Positions 14,308-44,043 of a DNA stretch of 64,000 nt are shown here, piece after piece. The number at the start of each line of letters is the position of its first letter. Position 1 is the stretch's first letter. Origin of the DNA: Gammaproteobacteria bacterium (lineage in GTDB: Bacteria > Pseudomonadota > Gammaproteobacteria > SZUA-152); the NCBI GenBank assembly GCA_013152545.1, contig JAADGF010000020.1, positions 302 to 64,301 of the forward strand. The letters are read 5' to 3'. The notes under the pieces are model-generated. The model was given only the letters and a program-made list of their open reading frames with translations, did no database searches and had not been told where the DNA came from. The position numbers and the translations under genes are program-made.

Positions 14308-16698
14308 TCAAACGGACCATTTCCAATCACGAATTTCTGGTAGGTCCTGTCCATGTTTAACAATATAAGCGGTATGTTGGATCAATTTATCACGCATTTT
14401 CTGTTCTAGATAAGCCGCACTTGAACCAAGTGAGGGTACGCGATCAATCACATCCATCACCAAATGAAAGCGATCCATATCATTAAGTACTACCATATCA
14501 AATGGCGTTGTCGTAGTGCCCTCCTCCTTGTAACCTCGTACATGTAAATGATGATGGCACATGCGACGATAGGTCAGACGATGAATCAACCACGGGTAGC
14601 CGTGATAGGCAAATATCACTGGCGTGTTGGCGGGAAACAGTATATCGAAATCCTTGTCTGCCAGTCCGTGTGGGTGTTCACTCTGCGGTTGTAATGTCAT
14701 TAAATCCACGACGTTGATCACCCTGACTTTCAATTCGGGCAGATGTTGCCGCAACAAGCACACTGCGGCTAGGGTTTCTAGTGTTGGCACATCACCAGCG
14801 CAAGCCATCACAACATCTGGCCCCCCATCTTGATCGTTACTGGCCCAACCCCAGATACCAACACCCGTACTGCAATGTTTAATGGCGGCGTCCATGGAGA
14901 GCCATTGGAGTTGCGGTTGCTTACCGGCAACAATGACGTTAATGCGATTTTTTGAACGCAAGCAGGTGTTGCTGACATGCAATAAAGTATTAGCATCCGG
15001 TGGTAGATAGACGCGAATGATGTCTGCCTTTTTATTTACCACATGATCAATAAAACCCGGGTCTTGGTGAGAAAAACCATTGTGGTCCTGACGCCAAACA
15101 TGGGAGGTCAACAGATAGTTAAGCGACGCAATGGGCCGTCGCCAGGATATCTCTTTACCGGTTACTTTGAGCCACTTTGCGTGTTGGTTTACCATAGAGT
15201 CGACAATATGAATAAATGCCTCATAACATGACAATAGACCGTGTCGACCCGTGAGTAGGTAACCTTCCAACCAACCCTGACAAGTGTGTTCACTGAGAAT
15301 CTCCATCACACGGCCATCGCCGGAAAGGTGATCATCTTCCGGTAAAATCTCTGCCTGCCATGCCCGATTCGTAACCTCAAACAACGCACCGAGACGATTC
15401 GATGCTGTTTCATCAGGACCAAAGATACGAAAGTTTTTTGTTTCACTATTTAATTTCATAATGTCGCGCAAGAATTCACCCATCACGCGTGTTGCTTCGC
15501 CCACAATCTGTCCTGGCTGCATCACCTCCAATGCATAGTCACGAAAATCACACATGATCAGGTCTCTAAGCAGTCGACCACCGTTGGCGTGCGGAATCGC
15601 CCCCATGCGCCGCTCACCTTCGGGTGCCAATGCCGCAAGCTCGTCACGAAAAGTACCGTTGTGATCGAACAATTCTTCCGGCTTATAACTCTTCATCCAC
15701 CGCTCTAGCAATTCAATATGCTCAGGTTGGTTGGAGAGATTGCCAAACGGTACCTGATGAGAACGCCAATAGCCTTCAGTTTTTTTGCCATCAACCTGTT
15801 TCGGCCCGGTCCAACCCTTCGGTGAGCGTAATACAATCATCGGCCAGCGTGGTCGGGTTTTATTACCATGGACTCTCGCATTTTCCTGAATAATGTTGAT
15901 CTCGGCAGTAATCGTGTCTAACGTTGCCGCCATTTTCTGGTGCATGCGCTCAGGGTCCGAACCTTCAACAAAATAAGGCTTGTAACCATAACCGACAAAA
16001 AGTTTTTCTAACTCATCGTGGCTAATACGCGCCAGTACCGAGGGATTGGCAATTTTGTAGCCATTGAGATGCAGTATCGGTAACACGGCGCCATCGGTCG
16101 CAGGGTTAATGAATTTATTGGAATGCCAAGCGGTGGCCAACGGCCCTGTCTCCGCCTCACCATCACCCACGACACAAGCAGCGATCAAATCGGGATTATC
16201 AAACACCGCACCATACGCATGAGACAGCACATAACCGAGCTCACCACCTTCATGGATAGAGCCCGGCGTTTCCGGCGACACATGACTGGGAATACCGCCG
16301 GGAAAAGAGAATTGCTTGAATAGCTTTTTCATGCCCTCAGCATCCCGACTGATATTGGGGTAGAATTCGCTATAGGTTCCTTCGAGATAAGTATTTGCCA
16401 CTAAGCCCGGGCCACCATGGCCAGGCCCAGCGAGATAGATCACATTCAGATCCTCGCGTTTGATAACACGATTCAAATGAGCATAGATAAAATTCAGTCC
16501 TGGGGTGGTACCCCAATGACCAAGCAACCTTGGTTTGACATGTTCAAGCGTCAGCGGCTCTTTGAGTAACGCATTATCCAGCAAATAAATCTGCCCCACC
16601 GAAAGATAGTTTGCGGCACGCCAGTAGGCGTTGATCTGGGTCAGTTCGTTACTTGAAAGTGATTGCTCCATCACGTCAGTTTTGTTCGCCTTTTTCAT
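14308..16698 (-). CDS. xfp: xylulose-5-phosphate/fructose-6-phosphate phosphoketolase
   Basis: About 795 aa. Conserved N-terminus [26 protein letters not shown] and the TPP-binding region [11 protein letters not shown]. The start ATG (MKKANKTD) has a GGAAGG RBS and overlaps the ackA stop. Confidence 0.9.
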
Positions 16699-17845
16699 CA
16701 GAAACCCTTCCTTTTTTGAATACAGCAATTGCATCAAGCACCATCATCAGCGCTTCATTTACGGCTATCACCCAGACATCAACCTGGCTCGCCACAACAC
16801 TGATACGCGCCGCTTTGCCAGCAGCATGATGGCGGCGTCCAGCATCATGACATACCGTGTCATTACGTACAGGGTCCAGTTCCACACCCAACCATTCCAT
16901 GCCCTGGAGAATTTTCGTCCTCACCAAGGAGCTATTCTCACCCACACCACCGCCAAATAAAATGGCATCAGCCCCCCCTAACACCGCCAGATAAGCACCA
17001 ATGTATTTGCGCACCCGATAACAATAAAGATTGACTGCTAACACGGCTTGAGGATTGTCGGAATCCAGCAGTACGCGCATATCATTACTTTCACCGGATA
17101 TACCGAAAAGACCGCTCTGCTTATTCAATATGTCATCTAACGCCTCAACACTCATTCCCGTTTGTCGTTGCAAGTAAGTAACGACACCCGGGTCAAGATC
17201 GCCTGAACGAGTCGCCATCACCAAGCCTTCCAATGGTGAAAAACCCATCGATGTATCCACTGGCACACCGTGTTCTATTGCGGTAATGGAACACCCCGAG
17301 CCAAGCTGCACAGAAATAACCCGGCCACTCTGTTTCGCGTTTTGCTTCAGTCCCCACCAATGTTGCCACATTGCACGATGAGCAATACCATGAAACCCAT
17401 AACGACGAATACCATAGCGTTGGCATAACTCATGGGGCAATGCGTAGGTAGTCGCAACTTCTGGTAAGGAGCGGTAAAACGCTGTATCGAATACGGCCAC
17501 TTGAGGCACCTGTGCACCCAAAAGGCGACGCGCAACTCGAATCCATTCAAGTGCGGGCGGATTATGCAGTGGTGCCAGCGGAATTAACTGTTCGATCTGG
17601 GCTTCTATTCTGGCGTCAATTAAACTCGGCGTCGTTAACCCCGCACCACCATGAACCACTCGATGTACAATTAATGTAATTTCAGCAGCATCCACTAACG
17701 CGATAAAATCAGCTAATAGTAAATGATCGGGACTCCCTATGTCTTGATGGTGTGCTTCCGCCAGTTGCACCAAACCGTCATCATCGGATGCAAACAAACT
17801 CAAGCGCAGGGAGGAACTACCAGCATTGATTGTTAAAATTGTCAC
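16676..17845 (-). CDS. ackA: acetate kinase
   Basis: INAGSSS motif at the N-terminus, 389 aa, ASKHA fold. Confidence 0.9.
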
Positions 17846-21346: not shown

Positions 21347-22111
21347 CTAGTTTGTCGCTTGATTTGTCGCGCTGGAATCATCGCCATTCTCCAGTTTACG
21401 CCAGGTAAAGTGCTCATAAACACCAGACCAATACATGCCAAAACCAATGGCAAACAACAGTTCCTCGATTGGCATAAACCCAACCGTCACACCCGACAAT
21501 ACCTCCATATTCCAAACCCGGTCGATATAACCCGGCGCACTCCATTCCAGAGCCACCAAAAAAATCGCGTAATAGACCAAAAACAGTAAACCGCCAATCC
21601 ATGTTTTTTGCTTCAAGTCCGGTCGACAAAGTATCGTCGCCACCGCACCGGCAAACATGGCAATAATAGAGGGGTAAATTGGGTTCCAGGGAAAAAAATA
21701 AAGCGCTATAAATACAATAAACGGTGCTGCCAGCGCTTTGTAATGGTGCCGATGCAAAGCATGATGACGTACACAAGTATCAACAGTTTGAGGAATTTTT
21801 TGGCTCAACAAATTATAAAATACCGAACCGATTCCGCCAATGCCAAAGCAGAAAATCAGACTTTCGATATCAAAACCGGTATTCTCAGCCAGATCAAACA
21901 AACTCGGCGGCATCCAGTATTCCGGCACAAACAACGGCTCACTCAATCCGAACGGTGTAGTGAATAGACTCGCCCACAACATCGCCCGCCGTTGCGCAGG
22001 AAAGCACCAATAAACCAGCCCCCAGGGTATCAGAAATGCGCTCGACCAGAGTAACCAAACATATTGATCAGATAACATTTTTAGCGCTCTCCTTCTCCAC
22101 TCTTTTTTCAA
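21347..22111 (-). CDS. polytopic membrane protein, possibly lycopene-cyclase-domain (CrtYcd-like) family
   Basis: 7-8 TM helices and two PxEE-like motifs (SEPLF, PIEELLF). The family assignment is from memory only. Confidence 0.3.
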   Translation of the reverse strand: MKKEWRRRALKMLSDQYVWLLWSSAFLIPWGLVYWCFPAQRRAMLWASLFTTPFGLSEPLFVPEYWMPPSLFDLAENTGFDIESLIFCFGIGGIGSVFYNLLSQKIPQTVDTCVRHHALHRHHYKALAAPFIVFIALYFFPWNPIYPSIIAMFAGAVATILCRPDLKQKTWIGGLLFLVYYAIFLVALEWSAPGYIDRVWNMEVLSGVTVGFMPIEELLFAIGFGMYWSGVYEHFTWRKLENGDDSSATNQATN

Positions 22112-22180: not shown

Positions 22181-22921
22181 TTATTCTGCCGATAAAATAT
22201 CCGCGCAAAAACACGAAGGATGTTTATAGTGCGATGTAACGTAGCTTTCAGCTAAGGTTGCGATCAAACGTTGTGGATCAGCGTCGTAAATTACCTGTGC
22301 ACCGTTATCCTTGCCGTCAAAACTGGCAACAATGTCGGGAATTTTATCGGTGATGCCACCACTGCCTTGCACTACACCAATGAGTTTACCCTCATCGTAG
22401 GCGATGGCAAACTCCCCTAAGGTGCCAGAACGACCACCAATAATGATCACCATATCACTGGAGCGAATATTAGTGACTTCGCGTCCCATTAAACCACTCC
22501 CGGTGTAGATAAGTACGTCAAAACAATCTACGGGAGAGTGGTACTTCTGCACATGTTCGTCCAGGCTTAAGGCGGGCGAAATGCCAATCGAGAGACCTCC
22601 ACCGTTCGTCGCGCCACGGGCGCACTCGTAAGGCAGTCCAGGACAAGCGCCGGTGATAAGAATAAATCCCCGTTTGGCGATTTCCTGCCCCAACGCATAA
22701 GCAACCCCTGTTATCGATTGCGACTGTTCATTACCCGCCGAGCCCATCACACCAACGGTGAAACGCATACTCGGTACTTTATCGAGAAACGTTTCCGGGC
22801 ACGCCAGAAACTTCTGTTGACATTGCTCTGAACAGAAATAGTAACTGCGGCCCTCGTGCTCAGCTAGCGCCTTTGCCTTGCGCGGATCAAGCGCCATTAA
22901 ACACACGGGATCACGAATCAT
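22181..22921 (-). CDS. YHS/TRASH metal-binding domain fused to a LOG/TIGR00725-like Rossmann domain
   Basis: N-terminus DPVCLM...YYFCSEQCQQKF is a YHS domain. The remainder (GVMGSAG...ITGACPG...IIIGGRSGTLGE) is a LOG-family fold. Confidence 0.6.
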   Translation of the reverse strand: MIRDPVCLMALDPRKAKALAEHEGRSYYFCSEQCQQKFLACPETFLDKVPSMRFTVGVMGSAGNEQSQSITGVAYALGQEIAKRGFILITGACPGLPYECARGATNGGGLSIGISPALSLDEHVQKYHSPVDCFDVLIYTGSGLMGREVTNIRSSDMVIIIGGRSGTLGEFAIAYDEGKLIGVVQGSGGITDKIPDIVASFDGKDNGAQVIYDADPQRLIATLAESYVTSHYKHPSCFCADILSAE

Positions 22922-23431
22922 AGCAACTCACCTTTTTATGCTTGTTTTTTTGTAACGGCTCAGGTTACCTTTAACCTAACACATCAGTTGAATCGTCGCG
23001 AGAGCGATGAGGGCGCTGAAGGTAAAAGACTTATGGGTTTTTTTTGGACGACAGCGTATCACCCATACGGTAATTTCAGAAAACCCCAATAAGTCTTTTA
23101 GATTCTGTGCTATAGGCCTTCGCAGTAGATTCAACTGAGTAATTTAGGTTTAACTTGCCTGGTTACTACATCAAAAGCGCTCATTTTACATCGCAATAAA
23201 CTCCACGCTTTTTCTTTGTTCTCGAACAAATCAACAGCAACCTAGGAACCTGTCCGAGAATAGCAGCAGACGCGAAGTAACCTGCTCATCTTCAACCATA
23301 TGTTCCAATTATTACGTACCCATTCATTAGCACCATGGAATCAATACATACTTTGACAAGCACCGCCACCACGCATGAAAAATATCATGGCGATACAAAT
23401 AACATTCTTACCCCCCTATTTCAAGGATCTC

Positions 23432-24211
23432 TCAACCAGTACCTCCACTTTCAATCGTCATGCGACAGCGCAAAAACCAAATTTGATAAAGTGAAATAAG
23501 AATTTGTAACGCCCACGATAATCCCAACAAACCGCCAGCAATGATTACGGTATAAGCATAGATCGGGTCCCATTTGGTCAAAAACCAAGCGGCAATATCG
23601 ACAAAAATAGCGATAAATGGTAATAATGTTAACGTGCATTGAAACCAGTCAGGCAGCAACGCGAAGCGGAACACCAAACCAATACCAAGCGCTACCAATG
23701 CGATACCAAACAAGTGGATATGCGACACCTTCATCAGACTGTGCAGCGAGACACCGGTATCCACATTGGCTACCTGTTTGATACCCTCGTAACTGCTGAG
23801 ATCTGGAATTTTCAAGCCAGAAGCCGCGCTATGACACATCACACACCGCTCAGCGAATATGGGTTTTATGATACGTTCGTAATCCGCTTCAGACGTACCT
23901 GACTTCAGCCACTCAATGACATGATTACGGTGCTCGGTATCAATATAACCTGACATCGGGCCTCGCAGTGCCGATTCCAAACGTGTACCACTGCGATTAC
24001 CGTAGTAGTTCTCAGCAACATCCTCTACTGACAATCCCGGCTTACCGTCAATGCCATTGTAACTGGTATAGAGATAGGCCAAGGCCATCAGGTAGGCGAG
24101 CCCCGCTAACAACAGAAACGAACTATAGAGCAACTTCTCGTTAAGGGTGCAATCATAAAAACGGCGCGGCCAAGTGACCTGACAGCCTTCCGTGTGATGT
24201 TTTTGACTCAT
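23432..24211 (-). CDS. membrane protein with a single CxxCH heme c motif (CVMCH) and three C-terminal TM helices
   Basis: One N-terminal TM helix, a soluble domain with CVMCHS, then a C-terminal TM bundle. Confidence 0.5.
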   Translation of the reverse strand: MSQKHHTEGCQVTWPRRFYDCTLNEKLLYSSFLLLAGLAYLMALAYLYTSYNGIDGKPGLSVEDVAENYYGNRSGTRLESALRGPMSGYIDTEHRNHVIEWLKSGTSEADYERIIKPIFAERCVMCHSAASGLKIPDLSSYEGIKQVANVDTGVSLHSLMKVSHIHLFGIALVALGIGLVFRFALLPDWFQCTLTLLPFIAIFVDIAAWFLTKWDPIYAYTVIIAGGLLGLSWALQILISLYQIWFLRCRMTIESGGTG

Positions 24212-24286: not shown

Positions 24287-25066
24287 CTACCCAGAGAGGG
24301 ATTCATCTAACTCAAAAACACAAACACGATAAAAATCAGAAAAACAGTGAAACTCATCAATTTGTTTGATCACCTTATCCTGTTTTTTTGCATGTTGCTG
24401 CAACATCGCAATCAAATCCAGACGCCAAAAACTCTCCAAGAATGGTTCCAAGCGTTGCAACAGCAGACGCGTAGGCCACAACCGCCATAGCAAATGTTTT
24501 TTAGGACAAGCGCCATACTCGGTGATGACCAAGCGGCCACCAGGCTGTAACACCCGTATCGCCTCACTAACACTATGCTCGCGCGCATCAGATGGTAACT
24601 CGTGAAGCAGAAAAAAGATAAGTACAGTGGCAAATACATTATCACCATAGGCAAGAAGCTCTGCATTCATTCGCGCACAAAGCAGGCGTTCCCTCGTCTC
24701 GTCAGTCAACTTTTTACGGCTCGCGGTTAACTGTATGTCTGCCACATCCATGAGATAGAGTTCGTCATCCATCGCCTTAAGCAGGGCAGGCGTCAAACTA
24801 CCATAAGCGCAGGTGAGCTGTAAAAACCGCCCCTGCGGCCGATTTTTCATACAGTCGCGTAGCGCCCTCAGCGACAGTGTCCGGTACTGCCCAAAAAGAA
24901 TGGCATTGATAATCGGCTGGTGATCGAAAAACCAGACGCCCCAGTGCCAGAGGTAAGCCCACCAATAGTGACGCACCAGATATTCTGGCTTACCATTGAG
25001 AAAGCGCCGCCAAATACCTGTCGGCAATTCGTTATTTTTGTGGTGCTTTGATGACATATCGATCAC
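24287..25066 (-). CDS. class I SAM-methyltransferase-like protein with a degenerate motif I; candidate rhodoquinone biosynthesis enzyme RquA
   Basis: Motif I reads FLQLTCAYG (the Asp and glycines of hhDhGxGxG are replaced). Post-I YLMDVAD, motif II VLIFFLLHELP, motif III LQPGGRLVI. Confidence 0.4.
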   Translation of the reverse strand: MIDMSSKHHKNNELPTGIWRRFLNGKPEYLVRHYWWAYLWHWGVWFFDHQPIINAILFGQYRTLSLRALRDCMKNRPQGRFLQLTCAYGSLTPALLKAMDDELYLMDVADIQLTASRKKLTDETRERLLCARMNAELLAYGDNVFATVLIFFLLHELPSDAREHSVSEAIRVLQPGGRLVITEYGACPKKHLLWRLWPTRLLLQRLEPFLESFWRLDLIAMLQQHAKKQDKVIKQIDEFHCFSDFYRVCVFELDESLSG

Positions 25067-25414: not shown

Positions 25415-26668
25415 TTAAAACCCTCTCAGCCGAATAGCATGATCAACCCGCCCAATCGCCAACTCATAGGCCGCAGAACGCATATCGATTTTCCGTTCCT
25501 GCGCCAGATCACGCACCACATCGTAAGTACGGGAGAGTCGTTTCTCCAAGCGGCTCAGTACCAGTTCCCGGTCCCACGGGAACTGTTGTAAGTTCTGCAC
25601 CCATTCATAGTAGGATGCCAGCACACCACCTACATTCGCCAGCAGATCCGGCACAATAACAACAGCGCGCTGCTGCAAACGTTGATCCGCTTGATGCGTA
25701 ATAGGGATGTTGGCCGCCTCCACAATCAACGGAGCTTGAATGGCATCGGCGTTATCACAGGTAATGGTTGCTTCCAACGCAGCAGGGATCAAAATTTCAC
25801 AGGGCAGTTCGAGCAATTCAGCATTACTAACCGCAGCAGTACCAGCCAGACCTTGCAATGCACCCGTCTCACGCACATGCGCCAGCGCCAAGCCGACATC
25901 AATCCCTTTCTCAGAATAAACACCACCACGAGAACCGGAAAGTGCAATGATTTTATATCCTTTACTCGCCAAACTGATCGCCGCATGGGAGCCAACATTA
26001 CCAAAACCCTGGATCACCACCCGACTCTGTTCGGCAATAAGCGACATCGCCATAGCCGCCTTGTCGGCCAGGTGGGCGACACCGTGACCAGTTGCCTCCA
26101 GTCGTCCAGCACAACCTCCTAGCGCCATCGGTTTACCAGTAACAACGGCCGTTCTATAACCGTGAGTTTTGCTATACTCATCCAATATCCAGCCCATCAC
26201 CTGAGGATTAGTGCCAATATCCGGTGCGGGAATATCTTCATGCACACCAATGATCGGCGCCATTTTTTGACAAAAACGTTTGGAAAGCTCTTCTAACTCA
26301 GTTTCGTTCAACTGCTTCGGATCAACCGCGACCCCCCCTTTGGCGCCACCAAAAGGGATATCCACCAAGGCCGTTTTCCAGGTCATCAATTGTGCTAACG
26401 CCCGCACTTCCCCCAAATTAACATCCGGATGAAAACGTAACCCACCTTTGAACGGTCCACGAGCATGATTGTGTTGCACGCGGTAGCCCTGAAAGGTGTG
26501 CAGAGTATTCTCACCATTGTGGCGCAACGTCACTGGCACAGTCACGCGCGTCTCCCGAAACGACGAGAGCAACAGCGCTTGTCGCGACGCCTTTAGCTTA
26601 AGACGACTAAACGCCGAATCAAGAAAATGGCGTTGAGTCTTCTGGCAAACGCATTTTTTATCCATCAA
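25415..26668 (-). CDS. glutamate dehydrogenase (Glu/Leu/Phe/Val dehydrogenase family)
   Basis: KGGLRFHP and the catalytic FGGAKGG motif. C-terminal Rossmann motif GFGNVG. Confidence 0.85.
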   Translation of the reverse strand: MMDKKCVCQKTQRHFLDSAFSRLKLKASRQALLLSSFRETRVTVPVTLRHNGENTLHTFQGYRVQHNHARGPFKGGLRFHPDVNLGEVRALAQLMTWKTALVDIPFGGAKGGVAVDPKQLNETELEELSKRFCQKMAPIIGVHEDIPAPDIGTNPQVMGWILDEYSKTHGYRTAVVTGKPMALGGCAGRLEATGHGVAHLADKAAMAMSLIAEQSRVVIQGFGNVGSHAAISLASKGYKIIALSGSRGGVYSEKGIDVGLALAHVRETGALQGLAGTAAVSNAELLELPCEILIPAALEATITCDNADAIQAPLIVEAANIPITHQADQRLQQRAVVIVPDLLANVGGVLASYYEWVQNLQQFPWDRELVLSRLEKRLSRTYDVVRDLAQERKIDMRSAAYELAIGRVDHAIRLRGF

Positions 26669-26954
26669 CGCGCTCCTCCTTACTACCGCGAAGTACGGTG
26701 AAATTGTAGATTGGCACCCAAATCAAGGCGAAATACCAGCCATAACCGTACGCCTCGATCAACCCCAGAAAAAAACTTTTCCAACTCAGCCACTCGAAAC
26801 CCGGTAATAGTTTTTGCCAGGTTTCGTACATTGCATGCCCAGGAAAAACCAGATCAAACCCGACACAGAGCACAAAACTGATTGCCAATGTGAAACTGGT
26901 GGCATGACCCACACCCAACAACGACATCCCCTGCCTATGATGACTACATTTCAT
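26658..26954 (-). CDS. small integral membrane protein (2-3 TM), unknown function
   Basis: The ORF overlaps the upstream YHS gene by about 11 nt and the gdh start by 11 nt. Hydrophobic. Confidence 0.4.
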   Translation of the reverse strand: MKCSHHRQGMSLLGVGHATSFTLAISFVLCVGFDLVFPGHAMYETWQKLLPGFEWLSWKSFFLGLIEAYGYGWYFALIWVPIYNFTVLRGSKEERVDG

Positions 26955-27234
26955 GCTTTTCTCCCTGTTCTTTATTGAGATAACGCTCGGGATCAGCATC
27001 AAACTTATCGAGGCAACTTCGAGAGCAAAAGCGGTAGAGTTTCCCTCCATGCATTTTGCCGTAACCTTGCTCAGCCTCGACCTCCATATCGCAAACAGGG
27101 TCGATGTATTTCACCGCCTTACCGGTACCCCGCGAATGACCACCATGGCCGTGCATCATGTGTGCACCACACCCGAAGCGCATCATGATAAAAAACAGAA
27201 TTGCAAAGAACAATAACGAACCCAGGCCTTCCAT
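26944..27234 (-). CDS. His-rich YHS-domain protein (secreted or anchored)
   Basis: N-terminal hydrophobic segment, an HMMHGHGGH stretch, and a YHS domain DPVCDMEV...YRFCSRSCLDKF. Confidence 0.65.
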   Translation of the reverse strand: MEGLGSLLFFAILFFIMMRFGCGAHMMHGHGGHSRGTGKAVKYIDPVCDMEVEAEQGYGKMHGGKLYRFCSRSCLDKFDADPERYLNKEQGEKHEM

Positions 27235-27278: not shown

Positions 27279-27953
27279 TTACCTCGCTTCCTCATCCCGA
27301 ACCTCTACCATTAAAAACGCCTTCCATTGATTGAAAGATGGAAAAAAAGCGGGGGTTTTACGCACGTATTCGTTGTATGTCTCGCCAAACTCCAGCTCAG
27401 CGCGTCGCTCTTCGACCCGGGCTAGGTGCACATAGGCATAGAGCATAATGGGTGCCATTAACACGGTGAGTAACGTCGGCCACTGCACCAGAAAACCGAT
27501 GATGACCAGAAACAGCCCCGTATATTGCGGGTGACGGGCGTAGGCATAGATACCGTCGATGACCAAAGCACCACGTGCAGCGTGGATCTGGGTCCAGCCT
27601 TTTGAAAGTAGCGTGTAGCCCATAATCATCAACACCAGACTCAAAATCATCACGACCGCCCAGGCCAAGGTTGAACCGCCGAATACCACAACCCAGAGGT
27701 GGCCGAGCTTGTGGTTGAAAGGTTGTAACACCGGATAAGCATCACCTAACCAACCAGTGAGCAGATAAATGGTTAATGGGAAACCGTACATTTCGCTAAA
27801 AAGAGCCACCAGAAAGGCAACCACGACCCCCATGCTACGCCATTCCTGACCACCCCTCGGCTTGAGAAAACTCAAAATAAAAAAGAGAAACAGGCCGATA
27901 TTAAAAGCCGCTACCACCCACATACCATAAGCATATTCGACTTCACCATGCAT
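27279..27953 (-). CDS. isoprenylcysteine carboxyl methyltransferase (ICMT/PEMT) family membrane protein
   Basis: C-terminus VIDGIYAYARHPQYTGLF...EERRAELEFGETYNEYVRKTP is characteristic of the family. Confidence 0.7.
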   Translation of the reverse strand: MHGEVEYAYGMWVVAAFNIGLFLFFILSFLKPRGGQEWRSMGVVVAFLVALFSEMYGFPLTIYLLTGWLGDAYPVLQPFNHKLGHLWVVVFGGSTLAWAVVMILSLVLMIMGYTLLSKGWTQIHAARGALVIDGIYAYARHPQYTGLFLVIIGFLVQWPTLLTVLMAPIMLYAYVHLARVEERRAELEFGETYNEYVRKTPAFFPSFNQWKAFLMVEVRDEEAR

Positions 27954-28036: not shown

Positions 28037-30628
28037 CTACAGTTTTACTCCTCTCAATCTGAGGGCATTTGTTATCACCGACACCGAACTGAAACTCATG
28101 GCTGCGGCTGCAATGATAGGCGAGAGCAACAAACCGAAGAAAGGATAGAGCACGCCCGCCGCAACCGGCACACCCGCCGCATTGTAAATAAATGCAAAAA
28201 AGAGGTTCTGGCGGATATTGCGCATAGTGGCACGACTGAGGCGACGCGCCCTGACAATACCGCGCAAATCTCCTTTAACAAGCGTTACGCCAGCACTCTC
28301 CATAGCAACATCAGTACCAGTGCCCATAGCAACACCGACATGCGCCTGCGCTAATGCTGGCGCGTCGTTAATGCCATCACCCGCCATAGCAACAATGCGC
28401 CCCTCGGCCTGAAGTTGTTTCACCACCTCAGCTTTTTGATCCGGTAACACCTCAGCCTGAACCTGATCAATATCCAGCTTGGCAGCCACCGCTTCGGCAG
28501 TCTTGCGACTATCACCGGTGAGCATCACCACACGGATGCCTTCGCCATGCAGGTCACGAATCGCCTCAGGGGTGGTGGCCTTAATGGGATCGGCAACACC
28601 AATCAAACCAGCGGCTTTACCATTGATCGCCAGCAGCATCACCGTCTGGCCTTCAGCTCGCTGGCTATCCGCTTGTTGCGGCAATTCGCCCGCATCAATG
28701 CCGAGACTCTGCAACAACGCAAGATTACCCAACGCCACCTTACGGCCATCGACGATACCAGTGACGCCCTTGCCGGTTACCGACTGGAAATCATCGACGC
28801 CGATCAATTCCACACCTCTCTCCTCAGCACCCTGCACAATAGCCTCGGCCAGCGGATGTTCGCTGGCCCGTTCAAGACTGGCGGCCAGACGTAAATTGTC
28901 ATTGTCCTGAAAACCGTGCTCAGCGATGACAGAAACCAATCTCGGCTTACCTTCGGTCAGCGTGCCAGTTTTGTCCACCACTAAGGTATCTACCTTCTGC
29001 ATGACTTCTAATGCCTCAGCATTTTTGATCAACACCCCCATCATTGCGCCTTTACCGGTACCGACCATAATTGACATGGGTGTCGCCAAACCCAATGCAC
29101 AGGGACAGGCAATAATCAGCACCGCTACTGCATTAATCACCGCATAAGCAATGGCCGGCTCCGGCCCCCACAAACTCCAGATAATAAATGTGATAACGGC
29201 AATGAGTACCACCGCCGGCACAAAGTAACCGGCGACAACGTCCACCAGCTTTTGAATAGGGGCACGGGAACGCTGTGCTTCAGCTACCATTTTAACAATT
29301 TGCGATAACAACGTGTCGGCACCCACTTTATCGGCGCGCATCACCAGACCGCCAGTGCCATTGACAGTCGCACCGATCAATTTTTCTCCTGCGGTTTTAA
29401 CCACAGGGAGCGGCTCACCAGTCACCATCGATTCATCAACATTGCTTTCGCCATCCAGCACTTCGCCATCCACTGGCACCTTCTCTCCAGGACGAACCCG
29501 CAAACGATCACCGCGCTGCACATGTTCCAGCGGTATATCTTCTTCGGTGCCATCATCGCGCACGATACGCGCTGTTTTCGGTGCCAAACCCAACAAGAGT
29601 TTGATCGCCGCATTCGTCTGGCTGCGGGCACGCAATTCCAATACTTGCCCCAATAAAACAAGCGCTGTTATGACAGCAGCTGCTTCAAAATAGACCGGGA
29701 TCACCCCCATCTCGTTCAACACAGCTGCCGGGAAAATACCCGGCATCACAACACCAATAAAACTGTAAACCCAGGCGATACTCACACCGATAGCGATTAA
29801 TGTGAACATATTGAGGTTACGCGTCATAACTGACTGCCAGCCACGTACGTAGAATATCCACCCTCCCCACCACACTACGGGCGCAGAAAGCAACAATTCG
29901 ATCCATTGGCGAGTTTTCGGGTTAATGATTTGCGCCATGGTTTCAGGCCAAAACTCAGCACCCATAGCACTAAAAAAAACAGGGATTGCAAGTATTGCAC
30001 TGATCCAGAAGCGACGGTTCATATAGTCCAGTTCGCTGCTATCCTCTTCCACCTCCACAGTCATCGCTTCCAGTGCCATGCCACATTTGGGGCAATTACC
30101 GGGATGATCTTGAACAATTTCCGGATGCATAGGACAAGTGTATTCGGTTCTTGTAGTGGATAAGGGGATATTTTTCGGCTCAAGCGCCATACCGCACTTG
30201 GGGCAACTGCCTGGGCCTTGCTGTTCAATCTCAAGGTGCATGGGACAGGTGTAAATTGCCGATCCATCCAGCGGACTGGATGCTTTTACTGTATGATGAG
30301 CATGATCCTCGCCACCACAGCAACTGTTTTTTTCGTGCTTCGTCTTGATCAGATATTGTCCAGGTGACGTCAAAAACTTATCTAAGCAACCTATGCTGCA
30401 AAAATAGTGGCTGTTGCCCTCGTATTCTGTGTGATGTGCTGACGCGGCGCTAACCACCATACCACACACCGGGTCAGTGAGCGATTCGCTTGGTACATAT
30501 TGCGCAGGATCAGCGTCAAACTTTTGCAGACAATGCTCACTACAGAAATAATAACGCTTGCCACTATGATCCGTGTAGTATTCTTTATCCTCCGCCACGT
30601 CCATGCCGCAAACCGGATCAATTTTCAT
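28037..30628 (-). CDS. copA: copper-translocating P1B-type ATPase with 2 YHS plus 2 CPMHxE...CPKCGM metal-binding modules
   Basis: CPC in a TM helix (ACPCALG), DKTGT, HP (SEHPL), GDGINDAP. The N-terminus carries two YHS domains and two CPMH...CPKCGM modules. Confidence 0.9.
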
Positions 30629-30649: not shown

Positions 30650-31063
30650 TCAAACAATGGACTCGATCAAATGACAAATCGCCTCACCATCCGGTTCACC
30701 ATCTGGCATTGATTTCCACTGATCTAAAGCATTATCCATTCGTTCTTGCAGTGCATTGAGTTCAATCATCCTCACTCTATTTTGATCAATGCGCTGACGA
30801 ATAATGTCGCGTACCGCCGGACAGGGTGACTGCCCATCATTGCTATGATCGAAAATGGTCTGAATATCGCTCAACGTGAATCCAAGCCCCTTGGCTCGGC
30901 ATATGAACTTCACTTTCTTAATATCATCGTCGTTAAAGAGCTTGTATCCATTATTAGGATCGCGTGACGGCGCTAACAACCCGATACGTACATAGTGGCG
31001 TATCGCATCCGGAGTGGCTTGCGCCGCTTTTGATAACTCACTGACAGTCAACATATCGTTCAC
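30650..31063 (-). CDS. cueR: MerR-family metal-responsive regulator (CueR/HmrR-like)
   Basis: N-terminal MerR HTH, a dimerization helix, and C-terminal Cys residues (CPAV..., ICHL). Lies 21 nt upstream of copA. Confidence 0.75.
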   Translation of the reverse strand: MNDMLTVSELSKAAQATPDAIRHYVRIGLLAPSRDPNNGYKLFNDDDIKKVKFICRAKGLGFTLSDIQTIFDHSNDGQSPCPAVRDIIRQRIDQNRVRMIELNALQERMDNALDQWKSMPDGEPDGEAICHLIESIV

Positions 31064-31207: not shown

Positions 31208-31741
31208 TTAATATTTTGTAAATATCTTACTGCCACCTTCTTTATCAAACATCAACACGTTATAACCTCTAGGCTTTTCACCCGGTGGCGACATACCGGG
31301 TGAGTGCTTGGGCATTCCAGGCGCGGTAAGCCCAGCGGTTTTAAATTTTTCTCTCAACAATTGCTTGATGTCAGTGGCAGGAACATGCCCTTCGATCACA
31401 TAACCGTCTATGGTCGCCGTGTGACAGGATGCCAAATACGGTTTCACACCAAGTGATTTTTTAATACTGTCCATATCATTTCGGTTATGTGAAACAACCT
31501 TGAATCCCTCGGTTTCAAGGTGCGTCACCCAGTCATCGCAACAACCACAGGTAGGAGATTTATATACGGTAATCTCCGGCAATGCTTTGTTAGACCCAGC
31601 GGGAACTTCCCCAGCATAAACCTGCTGTGCCGACCCAAACCAAAACATCACCACCATAGTCGTCACAACGATTAGATTTAAAAAAAAGAACCAATATCTA
31701 CTTTTTTCAATGATGGCATCCACTCCATTTAGATAGCTCAC
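31208..31741 (-). CDS. DUF411 / CopG-like periplasmic copper-cluster protein
   Basis: N-terminal TM anchor and a conserved CxCC motif (SPTCGCCDDW) followed by a His. Confidence 0.65.
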   Translation of the reverse strand: MSYLNGVDAIIEKSRYWFFFLNLIVVTTMVVMFWFGSAQQVYAGEVPAGSNKALPEITVYKSPTCGCCDDWVTHLETEGFKVVSHNRNDMDSIKKSLGVKPYLASCHTATIDGYVIEGHVPATDIKQLLREKFKTAGLTAPGMPKHSPGMSPPGEKPRGYNVLMFDKEGGSKIFTKY

Positions 31742-32380: not shown

Positions 32381-32707
32381 TTAAATTTCGTCTATTTTGG
32401 CTTCAGAGCGCGTTCTGATTCGGTAGATTTTTTCCACCGGCATCACCGCGACGATACCATCACCTTCCAGTCCCACATGAGCTGTATCCATGATGGCCTG
32501 AGCAATTGCATCGACCTTAGTTTCATTCGTGAATATCTCGATCCGGGCATGGCTGACCATCCAATCTTTAGAATAAAAATCCGCATATTCCCCATACCCC
32601 TTAACCTTGGTGACGTTAATACCACGTATTCCTAATTGTTGTAGCTTTTGCTCTACTTTTTCCAACACACTGCGTCGAATAATGGCCGTTATTTTTCGGT
32701 AGTTCAT
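32381..32707 (-). CDS. P-II (GlnB-like) family signal-transduction protein
   Basis: 109 aa beginning MNYRKITAII with a GAGGTGAAG RBS. Ferredoxin-like PII fold motifs and a T-loop-like region GYGEY. Confidence 0.6.
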   Translation of the reverse strand: MNYRKITAIIRRSVLEKVEQKLQQLGIRGINVTKVKGYGEYADFYSKDWMVSHARIEIFTNETKVDAIAQAIMDTAHVGLEGDGIVAVMPVEKIYRIRTRSEAKIDEI

Positions 32708-32720
32708 CTCTTCACCTCTG

Positions 32721-33221
32721 TCAAATTCCAGGCGGTGGCCGGTTGCAGCAAGCTGCGGCCGGTGCCGCCAAATTATCGAGCTCAATCTCTTCGTTACCAT
32801 GTACCCAACCACGGCGTAAACGCTCCAGCCAACCGCCGCCAAGCTGTACACCAACCTCAACCAACGCGTTTTCGATCTGACTCTCTGTTACCTGTAACAA
32901 GTCATAGGTAATGTGTGTTTTGTCAACTTCGACCACCACCTGCTTGACGCCCATCATCGCCATTAAATAAGGAATGAGCAGAGCCGCAACCTCACTATCC
33001 ACCGGTTCAGCCAGACGCATGGTTCGTCTTTTAATAATTTCGTTACGCTTTGTTCCAACCTTGACACTATACAGGCTCGGGTGAGCAACAAACGTTTCCC
33101 GACACTGTTCAGAGCAAAAACGGAAAAGCATTTTATGGTGCTCCATGACGGGTACGTCAGGCACCGTTACCATGCCACACACGGGGCAGATGTCACTCAG
33201 CAACGTCATCGCACTCTTCAT
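32721..33221 (-). CDS. YHS-domain protein with a Cys-less HMA-like C-terminal domain
   Basis: ICPVCGMV...FRFCSEQCRETF is a YHS domain. The C-terminus has a ferredoxin-like pattern without CxxC. A shorter internal start is possible. Confidence 0.5.
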   Translation of the reverse strand: MKSAMTLLSDICPVCGMVTVPDVPVMEHHKMLFRFCSEQCRETFVAHPSLYSVKVGTKRNEIIKRRTMRLAEPVDSEVAALLIPYLMAMMGVKQVVVEVDKTHITYDLLQVTESQIENALVEVGVQLGGGWLERLRRGWVHGNEEIELDNLAAPAAACCNRPPPGI

Positions 33222-33850: not shown

Positions 33851-34723
33851 TCAAAACCAAAAACGCACTCCCGCCATCACCCAGGTTTCACGCGTTGACT
33901 CATCAGCAGCACGAACATAGTCAGCCGTATCACCGAATCTGCCCTGCCACTCAACACCAATATAAGGGGCGAACTCACGGCGGATTTCGTAACGCAACCG
34001 TAAACCAGCTGTCATGTCGGAAAAACCGGAACCCAGCGCTCGCGCAGGATCATCCTTACCGTAAACATTAACCTCAACCCGGGGCTGAAGAATCAATTTC
34101 TGGGTGAATAACAGCTCATACTCCGCCTCGACGCCTAACGCGCTGCGGCCGCTCTCACCCAGGTAGGCGGTAATGTCTAATTCAAACCAATAAGGCGCTA
34201 AACCCTGAAAACCAAAAGCAACCCAATGTCGATCAGGCCTTGCATCACGGCTGTCATAACGCAGCCCCAGTTGCGTATTCCAAAATGTCGCCACCGCATG
34301 ACTCCACAACAACTCGGTATCGGCCTCTTCCAGCTTGCCGCCATTAAGCTCCCCTTCCGCCTTCAACACCACACGATCATAGTCACGACCGTACCAGGCT
34401 TGAAGACCATAAACTGTGCTAGTGTTATCATCGTTGTGCACAACCTCAAAACGATCAACGAGCAGTGAAGCGAAGCTGTACTCATCAGCCAAACGTAGCC
34501 GCGGTATTGAGCTAACGTCGTAACCGCCAGAGTAAGCGTGTGGATCACGGGCATCTGCTGGAGCCGACCCTCCTTGCATGGCACCTCGCATCACCATACC
34601 GTCACCACCATGACTCATGGTGTGACCCGTATCAGCTTGCGCCCGAGCGGGGAACGTGCCAACCGACAGTAAGGTACTCATCATTAACATAGCCAGCAGC
34701 GTATTCATATTGATTATTGTCAT
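33851..34723 (-). CDS. pcoB: copper resistance protein B (outer-membrane CopB/PcoB)
   Basis: Signal peptide, an N-terminal Met/His-rich segment, and a beta-barrel ending in ...VRFWF. Confidence 0.8.
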   Translation of the reverse strand: MTIINMNTLLAMLMMSTLLSVGTFPARAQADTGHTMSHGGDGMVMRGAMQGGSAPADARDPHAYSGGYDVSSIPRLRLADEYSFASLLVDRFEVVHNDDNTSTVYGLQAWYGRDYDRVVLKAEGELNGGKLEEADTELLWSHAVATFWNTQLGLRYDSRDARPDRHWVAFGFQGLAPYWFELDITAYLGESGRSALGVEAEYELLFTQKLILQPRVEVNVYGKDDPARALGSGFSDMTAGLRLRYEIRREFAPYIGVEWQGRFGDTADYVRAADESTRETWVMAGVRFWF

Positions 34724-34857: not shown

Positions 34858-36483
34858 TTACGCCGGTTGTACGCTAATCGTGTGCCTACGCGTCAGAAAA
34901 TGGCCATCCTGACTCTCCAATTCACTCCACATGCCGTGCAGATGCATTGGGTGAGTCATCATGGTGTCGTTGTGTAAAATCACCCGCAAGCGTTCGCCAT
35001 GACGAAAATGAATGGGCGTGGATTTGCCAAACTCCAGGCCATCAAAAGACCAAGTGTAGCGTTCCATGTTACCGGTCAAATGCAGTTCGATATCTCGCCC
35101 GGCACCACGAGAATCAAGGGGACCACCCACGGTATGCAAATCTGCATACGTCAATACCCGGCGGCCATTGTTACGCAAGCCAATGCCTGGGTCATCGAGA
35201 CTGGTGCGCGGTCTATCAACACGCATATCAACGCTGGGACCATACTCGGTTTTAGCGTGACGCACAGCAGCGTTCATAACACGGCTGCCATGCTGCATAC
35301 CGGGATTGGTGCCATCCTCGGTCATGGCACCCATCATATCTGCCATCGTTAAGCGCTGCGGCACATCCATTTCCGGTACTGCTGCCGCTAACCCAGCACG
35401 GATCGATAACGTACCGCGAGTGTAGCCAGTGCGATCCATGGATTGAGCGAAGATGGTGTAGGTATCGTCTTTCGGTGCAATCAGAACATCGTAGGTCTCA
35501 CCAGGACCGAAGCGAAACTCATCCACCGTCACTGGCTCAACGTTTTGACCGTCAACCTGTACTACGGTCATCTTCAGCCCGGGGATACGTACATCGAAAA
35601 AGCTCTGGGTACCAGAACTGACAAAGCGCAGTCTGACCCGTTCACCGCGACTGAATAGAGCCGTCCAATTAGCAGTTGGGGTGGCACCGTTCATGAGAAA
35701 GGTATAGGTGTAACCGGAGATGTCAGCAAGATCGGTCGGGCTCATCCGCATCCGGTTCCACATCCGCCGTTTACTGAGGGCAGCACTAAAACCACGATCA
35801 GCTGCATCGCGAAAAAAATCAAAGACAGTCGGCTGGTTAAAATTATAGTAATCACTTTGTTTTTTCAGTTTAGCGAAAACCGTCATCGGGTCGTCATCCG
35901 TCCAATCAGACAGTTGCACGATGTAATCACGGTCAGCACGGATTATTTCGCCGCCTGCTGGATCAACAATAATAGCGCCATACATCCCGGTCTGTTCTTG
36001 GAATCCAGAATGGGAGTGATACCAATAAGTACCACTCTGCTGCACCTTGAAACGATAGGTAAAAGTCTCACCCGGGACAATGCCAGAAAAACTGACGCCC
36101 GGCACACCGTCCATCTGGTAAGGCAAAATAATGCCGTGCCAGTGAATCGAGGTGGAAACATTGAGTCGATTAGTGACGCGAATCGTCACCGTATCACCCT
36201 CGCGCCAACGCAACGTAGGGGCAGGGATCGAGCCATTAATGGAGGTCGCTAACCGGGGCGCACCAGTGAAATTAACAATCGTCTCGGCAATACTAAGATC
36301 AAACACCGTGCCCGTGAGCACGGGGGCTAATCCAGTGACAGTTTCTGAAAATGGTGTTGCTGCCACTGGTTTAAGCAACGAAGGAGCAAAACCGAGCAAC
36401 AAACCACCGCAAGCCAAGCCTTGAACAAAGCGACGACGGGGTAAGCTAGGGAGTACCTGGGAATCTGGAGTCATATACTTCAT
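34858..36483 (-). CDS. pcoA: multicopper oxidase CopA/PcoA (Tat-exported)
   Basis: Twin-arginine motif PRRRFVQG. Copper ligand motifs HWHG, WYHSHS, HPMHLHGM. AAAGGA RBS before the ATG of MKYMTPD. Confidence 0.85.
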   Translation of the reverse strand: MKYMTPDSQVLPSLPRRRFVQGLACGGLLLGFAPSLLKPVAATPFSETVTGLAPVLTGTVFDLSIAETIVNFTGAPRLATSINGSIPAPTLRWREGDTVTIRVTNRLNVSTSIHWHGIILPYQMDGVPGVSFSGIVPGETFTYRFKVQQSGTYWYHSHSGFQEQTGMYGAIIVDPAGGEIIRADRDYIVQLSDWTDDDPMTVFAKLKKQSDYYNFNQPTVFDFFRDAADRGFSAALSKRRMWNRMRMSPTDLADISGYTYTFLMNGATPTANWTALFSRGERVRLRFVSSGTQSFFDVRIPGLKMTVVQVDGQNVEPVTVDEFRFGPGETYDVLIAPKDDTYTIFAQSMDRTGYTRGTLSIRAGLAAAVPEMDVPQRLTMADMMGAMTEDGTNPGMQHGSRVMNAAVRHAKTEYGPSVDMRVDRPRTSLDDPGIGLRNNGRRVLTYADLHTVGGPLDSRGAGRDIELHLTGNMERYTWSFDGLEFGKSTPIHFRHGERLRVILHNDTMMTHPMHLHGMWSELESQDGHFLTRRHTISVQPA

Positions 36484-36567
36484 CTGTTTCATCCTTTGAT
36501 TAAAACGTGATTTGGATCGAACGCAATCATCCATATACGCTGGAATTCCTGTCCACTCTCATTCACG

Positions 36568-40200: not shown

Positions 40201-40396
40201 TAACCTGATCCTCAACCACTTGAGGCGCCTGGCCAGGATATTCGGTGAAGACGATGACCTGAACATCCGATAGATCAGGAATTGCATCCAACGGCGTATT
40301 CTTCATCGACCACAGCCCTGCTGCCACGATAATCACGGTAGCGATGATAATCAGGAAGCGGTTGCGCAGAGATGCATCAATGATGCTGGTGATCAT
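37226..40396 (-). CDS. cusA: CusA/CzcA heavy-metal efflux RND permease
   Basis: 1056 aa with HME-RND architecture, immediately downstream of the cusB-like gene. Confidence 0.85.
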   Translation of the reverse strand: MITSIIDASLRNRFLIIIATVIIVAAGLWSMKNTPLDAIPDLSDVQVIVFTEYPGQAPQVVEDQVTYPLTTAMLAVPNAKVVRGYSFFGFSFVYIIFDDGTDMYWARSRVLEYLNYVSGRLPDGLTPSLGPDATGVGWVYEYALVDRTGNTDLAELRAIQDWYLRYPLQTVEGISEVASVGGYVKQYQVEVDPNALLAYNIPLSKIKHAIQRSNNDVGGKLVEMAETEYMVRGLGYIQSIDDLNVIPVGVDDNGTPIRLQDVAHVHLGPELRRGVAELDGEGEVVGGVVIMRYGENAMAVIERVRAKLEELKPGLPEGVEIVPVYDRGDLITRAVNNLEEKLIEEIIVVSIICILFLLHARSALVAIVSLPIGILLAFTMMKWQGINANIMSLGGIAIAIGAMVDGAIVMIENGHKHLEQMVKAKGRELTSPERWQAVTEASREVGPALFFSLLIITVSFLPVFTLQAQEGRLFAPLAFTKTYAMAAAAILAITLVPVLMGYFIRGKIPPEAKNPVNRFLHFIHMPTLNLAIRWRWLTLGLSLMLLAATFYPLQKLGSEFMPPLNEGDILYMPTTYPGVSVTKAKELLQQTDKIIKTFPEVLHVFGKVGRAETATDPAPLAMLETTIRLKPKDEWPDPSKTVKALMDEMDAAIKFPGLANAWTMPIKTRIDMLSTGIKTPIGIKVSGPDLKVLEQVGNDIEQALKQLPDTLSAFADKAAGGYYLDFDIDRAEASRYGLTTGDVQDVIQTAIGGMNVTHTVEGLERYPVNLRYPRELRDNLDSLKRVLIPTPTGAQIPLSLVAKLQLRRGPPGIKSENSRPNAWVYVDIKTSDIGGYVAEAKEVVASQVKIPPGYNLVWSGQFEYMERAAQRLRIVVPATLLVIFLLLYFNFRNISAPLVVMLSIPFGLIGGFWLIYLLGFNISVAVVVGFIALAGVAAEIGVLVLTFIDQEIARRRHAKGARLEAAEIMAAVHHGTSERVRPIAMTATAIIAGLLPIMWGSGTGSEVMQRIAAPMVGGMVTVTILCLLVLPVIYGVILQVQEKFKQSQAELESQTQ

Positions 40397-43308: not shown

Positions 43309-43354
43309 TTGCTGTCATACTCATGACAGAAGGTATCGGCTAGGCTGTTTGACT

Positions 43355-44041: not shown

Positions 44042-44043
44042 CA

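Follow-up and report, generated by a model that had tools for sequence, protein, structure and literature searches.

A 64,000-nucleotide stretch of a gammaproteobacterial genome (lineage SZUA-152; GenBank assembly GCA_013152545.1, contig JAADGF010000020.1, positions 302–64,301; hereafter the window) carries at positions 22181–22921, on the minus strand, a gene for a 246-residue protein in which an N-terminal YHS metal-binding domain is fused to a Rossmann domain of SLOG cluster 4 (hereafter YHS-SLOG). The YHS domain was found joined to this SLOG cluster 4 (SLOG4) subfamily in both domain orders, and its soft metal ligands were lost in the one clade that lives outside a copper gene context. We put at slightly less than an even chance the reading that the YHS domain senses cytoplasmic Cu(I) and gates the second domain, which would bind or hydrolyze nucleotides in the manner of LOG proteins.

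The open reading frame (ORF) begins with ATG, immediately adjoined on its upstream side by the purine-rich stretch AAAAAGGTGAG, and its product is classed as cytoplasmic, with no signal peptide visible. Pfam profiles placed YHS (PF04945) at residues 3–46 (22784–22915; 44.2 bits against a cutoff of 30.3, E = 2e-11; 47.2 bits in a whole-genome scan) and SLOG cluster 4 (PF18306) at residues 54–219 (22265–22762; 157.3 bits against a cutoff of 26.3, E = 2.8e-46), and these were the only Pfam matches in the protein. The alignment further defined a C-terminal tail, HYKHPSCFC (22205–22231), that contains H231, C237, and C239. A first-pass annotation, made by a model from the letters and translations, had proposed that a YHS domain is fused here to a second domain, and with both Pfam domains above cutoff in one ORF this proved correct; nor is the fusion a product of chance, given the two domain E values and the more than 100 orthologous clusters of the same architecture.

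An AlphaFold2 model, built from a 35-sequence alignment (A1), reached a predicted local distance difference test score (pLDDT) of 90.2 and a predicted template modeling score of 0.89, with disorder only at residues 239–246, so that both domains are predicted as one rigid unit. Structural matches covered residues 49–238 of the model, that is, the SLOG part and the tail, not YHS. The top match in Foldseek and VIA-align was TM1055 (1rcu; Z 24.7, root-mean-square deviation [rmsd] 1.8 over 164 residues), with the molybdenum cofactor (Moco) carrier proteins (MCPs; 2iz5 and 6y01) at Z 22–23, type-I LOGs at Z 20–21 (21.2 for the LOG–AMP complex 5zbk), DprA at Z 17–18, PpnN at Z 17, and the SLOG domain of ThsA at Z 14. 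The second domain is thus LOG-like in fold, and it is a member of no curated LOG or TIGR00725 family. By sequence, too, the MCPs were the closest named solved relatives (6y01, 2.2e-16; 2iz5, 1.7e-13), but at 28–31% identity. TM1055, CrMCP (2iz5–7), and RoMCP (6y01) belong to SLOG cluster 4 like the window protein, have the Arg and the GT..E loop in common with it, and superpose with rmsd 1.8–2.0 over 158–165 residues; at 24–31% identity, however, they have no YHS domain, no SPALSLDEH loop, no C100, and no HYxxPSCFC tail. TM1055 has no known function, and the MCPs are carriers, not enzymes: MCP binds Moco, transfers it to apo-nitrate reductase, and forms a homotetramer (PMC7470044).

Alignment A1 contained 57 invariant columns, including R147, G166, T167, and E170, and these residues were retained throughout the wider SLOG4 family (R147 in 267, G166 in 268, T167 in 261, and E170 in 268 of 271 relatives, with H123 in 269). 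The R147–E170 spacing of 23 residues equals that of the catalytic pair Arg99/Glu122 of CgLOG (PMC4979012) and that of the pair Arg155/Glu178 of a type-II LOG (PMC5379747). Type-I and type-II LOGs, which are cytokinin riboside 5'-monophosphate phosphoribohydrolases acting on (prenylated) AMP as homodimers with an interfacial active site, also have the Rossmann fold and the phosphate-loop Thr in common with the window protein. The SPALSLDEH loop, invariant in the YHS-SLOG clade, aligned with LPHEQH of type-II LOGs; TM1055 and the Moco carriers have a deletion at this place. Residues that contact base and prenyl group in LOGs differ: the CgLOG base-contact positions Glu121 and Lys100 correspond to Gly169 and Glu148. 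A cytokinin function was rejected as unsupported, since the LOG profiles were missed and these contact residues are not conserved, and the earlier suggestion of a cytokinin-like substrate lapses with it, the nearest solved relatives being TM1055 and the Moco carriers. Membership of the PpnN/YgdH group was likewise rejected, as Pfam found no flanking PAG1 or PAG2 domains (DUF4478, DUF3412). An anti-phage defense role, as known for some SLOG proteins, was set aside as well: 0 PADLOC families were found, there was no SIR2 or other effector domain, and ThsA SLOG matched at Z 14 only.

The kinship to MCPs raises the possibility that SLOG4 binds a Moco-, pterin-, or dithiolene-type ligand, which YHS would protect or release as copper, an attacker of dithiolenes, rises. 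The closest named solved relatives, by both sequence and fold, argue for it, and by the titles of their records many carriers of the gene are methylotrophs or sulfur or nitrite oxidizers dependent on molybdenum enzymes. Copper reportedly sits on the molybdopterin dithiolene in a structure of plant Cnx1G. Set against this, the invariant SPALSLDEH loop sides with type-II LOGs and is missing in MCPs and TM1055, no Moco biosynthesis gene occurred among the 25 recurrent neighbor clusters scanned, and fusions of SLOG4 to a beta-CASP ribonuclease (RNase) and to a cytidine deaminase (described below) point to nucleotides. The bacterial MCP itself co-purified with Moco at 0.43% saturation only (PMC7470044). 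A carrier function appears to us very unlikely.

The YHS domain presents the pattern D-x-x-C...C-x-x-x-C, with D4, C7, C30, and C34 as putative ligands and M9 conserved as well. D4, C7, and C30 did not vary among the 30 rows of A1 that have a YHS domain, and C34 is replaced by His or Asp in Actinomycetota. Further cysteines were compared over 270 sequences, each with 150 or more SLOG positions, taken from 269 fetched proteins and the 35 rows of A1, with near-duplicate rows and the window's own row included. C93, C100, C237, and C239 were all present in 128 of the 139 forms with a Cys34-type YHS domain. Six of the eight His/Asp34-type forms, which make up an Actinomycetota clade, have Ala, Ser, Val or Ile, and another residue at positions 93, 100, 237, and 239. 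Standalone SLOG4 relatives mostly have Cys or Thr at 93 and Ala at 100, and fusions with the domains in permuted order have C93, A100, C237, and C239. The forms encoded in copper islands have seven conserved cysteines and one methionine. C93 lies in the loop after strand 2 and adjoins the residue aligned with Arg42 of RoMCP, part of the lining of the anion crevice in that protein (PMC7470044). In the tail, H231, P235, S236, and F238 were invariant in all 35 aligned rows, even where the cysteines were lost.

To describe the gene neighborhoods, the best 80 of 482 matching stretches from reference contigs were taken as loci, together with the window, and all their ORFs were clustered. The 80 loci comprised 51 of Proteobacteria type, 18 from Actinomycetota, and 11 with SLOG-only or partial matches; in 25 loci the YHS-SLOG ORF was lost to antisense calls, which affects relative positions and leaves the per-locus counts untouched. 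A copper marker (P-type ATPase, CusA, CusB, DUF411, DUF5676, DUF2933, or small YHS protein within 6 kb) was present in 33 of the 51 Proteobacteria-type loci, in 23 of the 28 that span at least 10 kb, and in none of the 18 Actinomycetota loci. Because a type-IIA pump had fallen into the ATPase cluster in four loci (L011–L014), P1B ATPases were recounted by tblastn; one at least 40% identical to the core of the window CopA was found in 21/51 Proteobacteria-type, 0/18 Actinomycetota, and 2/11 SLOG-only or partial loci. We estimate the chance that a random gene lies that near a P-type ATPase at about 1% (3 P-type ATPases in 4.5 Mb).

Neighbors were nearly all co-directional, and the immediate partners varied, with the orders CopA–beta-CASP–YHS-SLOG in a Nitrospirota genome (L016), CopA–YHS-SLOG in Methyloversatilis (L035), YHS-SLOG–patatin–CopA in a member of the Zetaproteobacteria (L020), and ATPase–YHS-SLOG–DUF5676–CopA in Methylotenera mobilis 13 (L013). 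DUF5676 was a neighbor in 18 loci (two clusters of 9 each) and an ICMT-like methyltransferase in 17, the window included. An integrase gene flanks the island in L040. In the closest relative (L005) the order is CopA–ICMT–small YHS–DUF5676 ... YHS-SLOG ... Ack–Xfp; the frame is the same as in the window and the inserted genes differ (CBS, PLD), so that YHS-SLOG marks the island edge in both genomes. These neighborhoods in other species, together with the one biochemical precedent, a cyclase switched on by copper through its YHS domain (PMC4626032), support the link to copper that had been guessed from the window.

The Methylotenera loci also carry a type-IIA (Ca2+/PMR1-like) P-type ATPase (L013, 3201–5906, plus strand; 714 bits against a cutoff of 798) directly upstream of YHS-SLOG, with the Cu-type ATPase downstream. 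An HD-GYP-type (HD_5) protein was a neighbor in six loci (L011–L014, L026, and L046; in L013 at 1865–3232, plus strand); it resembles cyclic di-GMP phosphodiesterases and scored 118 bits against the 400-bit cutoff of a NosR-family model. In another genome of the window's order (G008), YHS-SLOG lies between a methyltransferase and a patatin gene, about 8 kb from pcoAB. The same genome encodes a MacB-type ABC ATPase with a C-terminal YHS domain (44 bits; L081, 5858–6958, minus strand, equal to contig C7 of G008), which adjoins two FtsX/MacB permease genes and pcoA/pcoB.

A beta-CASP RNase gene, whose product is a homolog of the ribonuclease TTHA0252 (3.5e-77), was a neighbor in 21 of the 80 loci, among them 12 of the 18 Actinomycetota and 7 of the 51 Proteobacteria-type loci. 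In Actinomycetota it stood directly upstream wherever its position could be read, and in L060 it overlaps the start of YHS-SLOG; genes for acetyl-CoA synthetase and 2-oxoacid dehydrogenase were also near. This arrangement suits an explanation that dispenses with copper, in which YHS is a structural, zinc-ribbon-like or zinc-binding module, the protein is an enzyme of nucleotide or RNA turnover that works with the beta-CASP RNase, and its presence in copper islands is hitch-hiking on mobile DNA. The start/stop overlap in L060, the 0/18 Actinomycetota loci with a copper gene nearby, the existence of a beta-CASP–SLOG4 fusion (P0125), the position of the window gene outside the copper operons, and the integrase at the L040 island all fit, and the TRASH domain of L24e, a relative of YHS, holds a structural metal (PMC4626032). 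Yet copper linkage recurs in many families of at least three phyla with differing immediate neighbors, and the clade outside copper context has lost M9, C34, C93, C100, C237, and C239, which would be hard to explain if these residues were unrelated to copper; moreover, a single beta-CASP query gave no match in the window genome. We regard an entirely copper-free role as quite unlikely.

To examine the distribution of the fusion, we ran a word-indexed protein search, which returned 5735 proteins at E ≤0.001 among 6324 candidates. All 120 clusters listed, at 65–100% identity, carry both domains, the first being the window's own protein; since a permuted form exists too, the view that the combination is unusual did not hold. 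Named carriers include Gammaproteobacteria, Nitrospirota, Mariprofundaceae, Sulfurovum, Nitrosococcus halophilus, and Candidatus Tenderia, with identities of 65–81% across phyla. In reference contigs, with one genome per species, a relative was encoded in 482 of 528 candidate stretches. A search of representatives at 50% identity gave 5237 matches at E ≤0.001 and 128 at E ≤1e-30; among the 150 representatives listed, P0121 alone (68% identity) was a full-length YHS-SLOG protein, with fragments besides, the remainder being standalone SLOG4 or other fusions. Judged by these sequence comparisons, the YHS-SLOG clade is tight and broadly spread. An Atlas search led back to the cluster of the protein itself and to further PF18306 clusters and to no others, and public databases label these proteins 'YHS domain-containing protein' or 'SLOG cluster 4 domain-containing protein'. 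Our literature search found no paper on a YHS-SLOG fusion or on TIGR00725; the founding survey of SLOG domains lay outside its coverage and may bear on novelty.

In a scan of 22 longer relatives, P0122 and P0124 consist of SLOG4 followed by YHS, P0125 (636 residues) of beta-CASP, RMMBL, and SLOG4, and P0213 (347 residues) of a cytidine/dCMP deaminase and SLOG4; several further ones are tandem SLOG4 proteins. The permuted SLOG4–YHS and the beta-CASP–SLOG4 proteins, from uncultured bacteria, belong to the same SLOG4 subfamily (55–60% identity) and associate with the same partners as the window family, namely YHS, RNase, and copper islands, but they differ from the window protein in a reversed order or another partner and in having A100 for C100. 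A quick IQ-TREE analysis was made of 160 SLOG cores, comprising all A1 rows, those of P0121–P0270 with at least 165 of the 181 core columns, and every eighth of P0002–P0120, with support given only by the Shimodaira–Hasegawa-like approximate likelihood ratio test. The N-terminal YHS forms made up one group of 47 rows (support 89), within which lie the Actinomycetota clade (99) and a single secondary loss (L064). Its sister group was formed by standalone SLOG4 proteins of Desulfobacterota and Nitrospirota (99), and the permuted forms fell elsewhere within the same 73-row group (91), to which the beta-CASP–SLOG4 fusion belongs as well. As key branches lie below 95, a second fusion event is argued mainly from the opposite domain order.

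From the domain identities, fold, residue conservation, gene neighborhoods, and other fusions we infer how the protein might act on copper. YHS-SLOG would be a cytoplasmic two-domain protein, an accessory and horizontally mobile part of copper-efflux islands. Cu(I) would be bound by YHS, probably aided by C93, C100, and the C-terminal CxC, and its binding may alter the state of the SLOG4 domain, through either the access to or the geometry of the pocket. The pocket is predicted to hold a ligand of the nucleoside 5'-phosphate type and may cleave it, as SLOG4 keeps the phosphate loop and the Arg/Glu pair that LOG and PpnN use to cleave nucleoside 5'-monophosphates at the N-glycosidic bond; the RNase, deaminase, and HD-GYP-type neighbors and partners lead us to favor a nucleotide substrate. 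An excess of copper would in this way directly switch a nucleotide-binding or nucleotide-hydrolyzing activity, adding a post-translational branch to the copper response, and in some lineages the beta-CASP RNase would supply the nucleotides. The fullest version of the proposal is a one-component copper sensor-enzyme, in which a composite Cu(I)–thiolate site, made of the YHS ligands, C93 and C100 at the pocket, and the CxC, gates a nucleotide N-glycosidase or ligand site, and which together with the beta-CASP RNase and HD-GYP-type proteins forms a hitherto unrecognized nucleotide-turnover or signaling arm of the copper stress response, post-translational and independent of CueR and CusRS. Taken with all of its parts, this version seems to us speculative and on the whole unlikely.

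The protein is a member of the YHS and SLOG cluster 4 families. The class IIIc adenylyl cyclase of Mycobacterium phlei is described as specifically switched on by 1–10 μM copper via its YHS domain, for which D-x-x-C...C-x-x-x-C is proposed as the set of metal ligands (PMC4626032). Like the window protein, it links a YHS domain of this pattern through a short linker to a catalytic domain that handles nucleotides, and by this analogy it may serve as a model for how the window protein works. Its YHS domain is C-terminal and its partner is a cyclase, whereas in the window protein YHS is N-terminal and the partner is SLOG; nor does it have the extra cysteine set, and a copper-island context is not reported in the parts of that source seen. 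PpnN offers a second comparison, as a nucleosidase of LOG fold whose flanking domains block the site until (p)ppGpp binds (PMC6717881); its PAG domains have no counterpart in the window protein.

Accounts of copper homeostasis in bacteria rely almost entirely on efflux pumps, oxidases, chaperones, and transcription factors. No domain other than YHS has been shown to render an enzyme switchable by copper, and here YHS is joined to a LOG-like nucleotide fold. If copper gates YHS-SLOG, a direct metabolic or signaling output would be added to copper stress, and the SLOG cluster 4/TIGR00725 group would gain its first physiological context. The protein would also put to the test the notion of YHS as a general plug-in copper sensor, as the domain occurs in P1B ATPases, a cyclase, and an ABC ATPase too. 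Since some carriers are in culture, among them Methylotenera mobilis 13 (L013), Sedimenticola selenatireducens (L037), and Nitrosococcus halophilus Nc 4, the idea can be tested.

The same copper context could be explained by a chaperone or buffer, in which YHS and the extra cysteines pass Cu(I) to the YHS domains of CopA and SLOG serves as an oligomeric scaffold, mirroring the CopZ-type HMA chaperones that serve HMA-bearing ATPases. The YHS fold is common to the protein and the N-terminus of the neighboring ATPase, the gene directly adjoins P1B ATPases in many loci, and the copper-island forms have their seven conserved cysteines and a methionine; the combination of an N-terminal metal domain with a C-terminal CxC resembles the eukaryotic chaperone CCS. 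Against a chaperone stand a SLOG core conserved beyond the needs of a scaffold (57 invariant columns, the phosphate loop and R147/E170 among them), a standalone SLOG4 protein without YHS that also adjoins ATPases (L077), the absence of the gene from 25 of the 27 YHS-bearing genomes of the order, and the availability of a simpler chaperone candidate in the 96-residue YHS protein of the window (below). We judge a chaperone or buffer role unlikely.

Several observations weigh against a copper-gated nucleotide enzyme as well. The protein stayed under the NCBIfam cutoffs of TIGR00725 (77.8 bits against 106.9), TIGR00730 (28.2 against 96.35), and, by far, the LOG equivalog NF058542 (23.3 against 300), and PF03641 gave no match at E ≤0.01; the close relatives P0122 and P0126 scored 68 and 63 bits on TIGR00725. 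The description of the domain as 'LOG/TIGR00725-like' is accordingly apt as a likeness and wrong as an assignment of membership. In place of the LOG motif PGGxGTxxE the protein has IGGRSGTLGE, with Ile or Val for Pro and a residue more between GG and GT (GGxxGTxxE). Moco carriers, which bind a cofactor and have no known hydrolytic activity, retain the Arg/Glu pair as well, so its conservation is no proof of catalysis. C237 and C239 occur in some standalone relatives (L073), which makes these cysteines older than the fusion, and the Actinomycetota clade keeps YHS without copper genes, so YHS need not mean copper. Of 32 genomes of the window's order, two, the window's included, gave the gene at E ≤1e-40 and 27 have YHS domains, which makes the gene dispensable for a YHS-type CopA; the same-order relative is 76% identical, no closer than many cross-phylum matches, as expected of an optional gene that spreads horizontally. 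In the window, finally, YHS-SLOG is 5.1 kb from copA and outside its operon, with three unrelated genes between, and a search of the window found no operator common to YHS-SLOG and the copper genes. The palindrome AGGTTAnnnnTAACCT upstream of the gene (22962–22977) occurs once in the window against 1.77 copies expected by chance, and predicted promoters and terminators were no more numerous than in shuffled sequence.

The copper island of the window extends from about 26.6 to 45.4 kb. At its near edge, all on the minus strand and assigned by Pfam, lie genes for a DUF5676 small membrane protein (26658–27050; its true start is probably internal), the His-rich 96-residue YHS protein (26944–27234; 51.3 bits), an ICMT/PEMT-like membrane methyltransferase (27279–27953), a CopA-type P1B ATPase with two YHS and two HMBD domains (28037–30628), a MerR-family, CueR-like regulator (30650–31063), and a DUF411 (CopG-like) protein (31208–31741). 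They are followed on the same strand by genes for a P-II-like protein (32381–32704; PF00543, 62 bits), located between DUF2231 and a YHS/HMA-like gene (32721–33221), a PcoB/CopB outer-membrane protein (33851–34723), a multicopper oxidase (34858–36534), CusA (37226–40396), CusB (40393–41943), and a CusC-like OEP (41909–43222). The response regulator CusR and sensor kinase CusS (43349–45441, plus strand) form the far edge, and DUF2231 and CMD proteins are also encoded in the island. The P-II-like ORF is listed with 159 residues, and its start is probably at an internal Met.

Five YHS domains had been counted within 11 kb here; four score above the Pfam threshold, namely the pair in CopA (together 112 bits), that of the 96-residue protein, and that of YHS-SLOG, and the fifth, at 32721–33221 (minus strand), is sub-threshold (17.1 bits, E 0.0057), although its pattern CPVCGM...FCSEQC was invariant in seven aligned homologs. 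As to the proposal that this last protein is a YHS-HMA fusion, its C-terminal half is beta-alpha-beta-beta-alpha-beta in a predicted model (pLDDT 72) whose best Foldseek rows were HMA domains, all with E >0.001, but Pfam found no HMA domain and there is no CxxC motif. The whole 4.5-Mb genome gave seven YHS matches, four on this stretch and three beside a second ATPase on contig C45. The ATPase at that locus (G000, C45, 171–3837) is of CopA type and has two YHS domains, and a small YHS protein of 113 residues is encoded there too.

On its downstream side, 69 nucleotides away, YHS-SLOG is followed by a gene for a Lycopene_cyc-domain membrane protein (21347–22111, minus strand; Pfam, 55 bits), which is probably its operon partner. 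Relatives of it occurred near YHS-SLOG in 8 of the 80 loci (six long and two short tblastn matches), and in L040 the gene is directly downstream on the same strand. Proteins of about 230–250 residues and 59–68% identity stand beside YHS-SLOG and CopA genes in L008, L010, L015, L031, L034, and L040. Upstream, after a spacer of 510 nucleotides, come a 259-residue membrane protein with a CxxCH heme-c motif (23432–24211, minus strand), which matched no Pfam, NCBIfam, or PADLOC family and had no relative in any of the 80 loci, then an RquA-like methyltransferase (24287–25066, minus strand; 165 bits on the rhodoquinone-biosynthesis RquA model, just under the cutoff of 175), and, as the third gene before the copper island, glutamate dehydrogenase. 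The RquA-like gene adjoins the glutamate dehydrogenase gene, and the host looks like a gammaproteobacterium of the sulfur-oxidizer type. Farther downstream, a phosphoketolase (Xfp) and acetate kinase pair (14308–17845, minus strand) is syntenic with L005.

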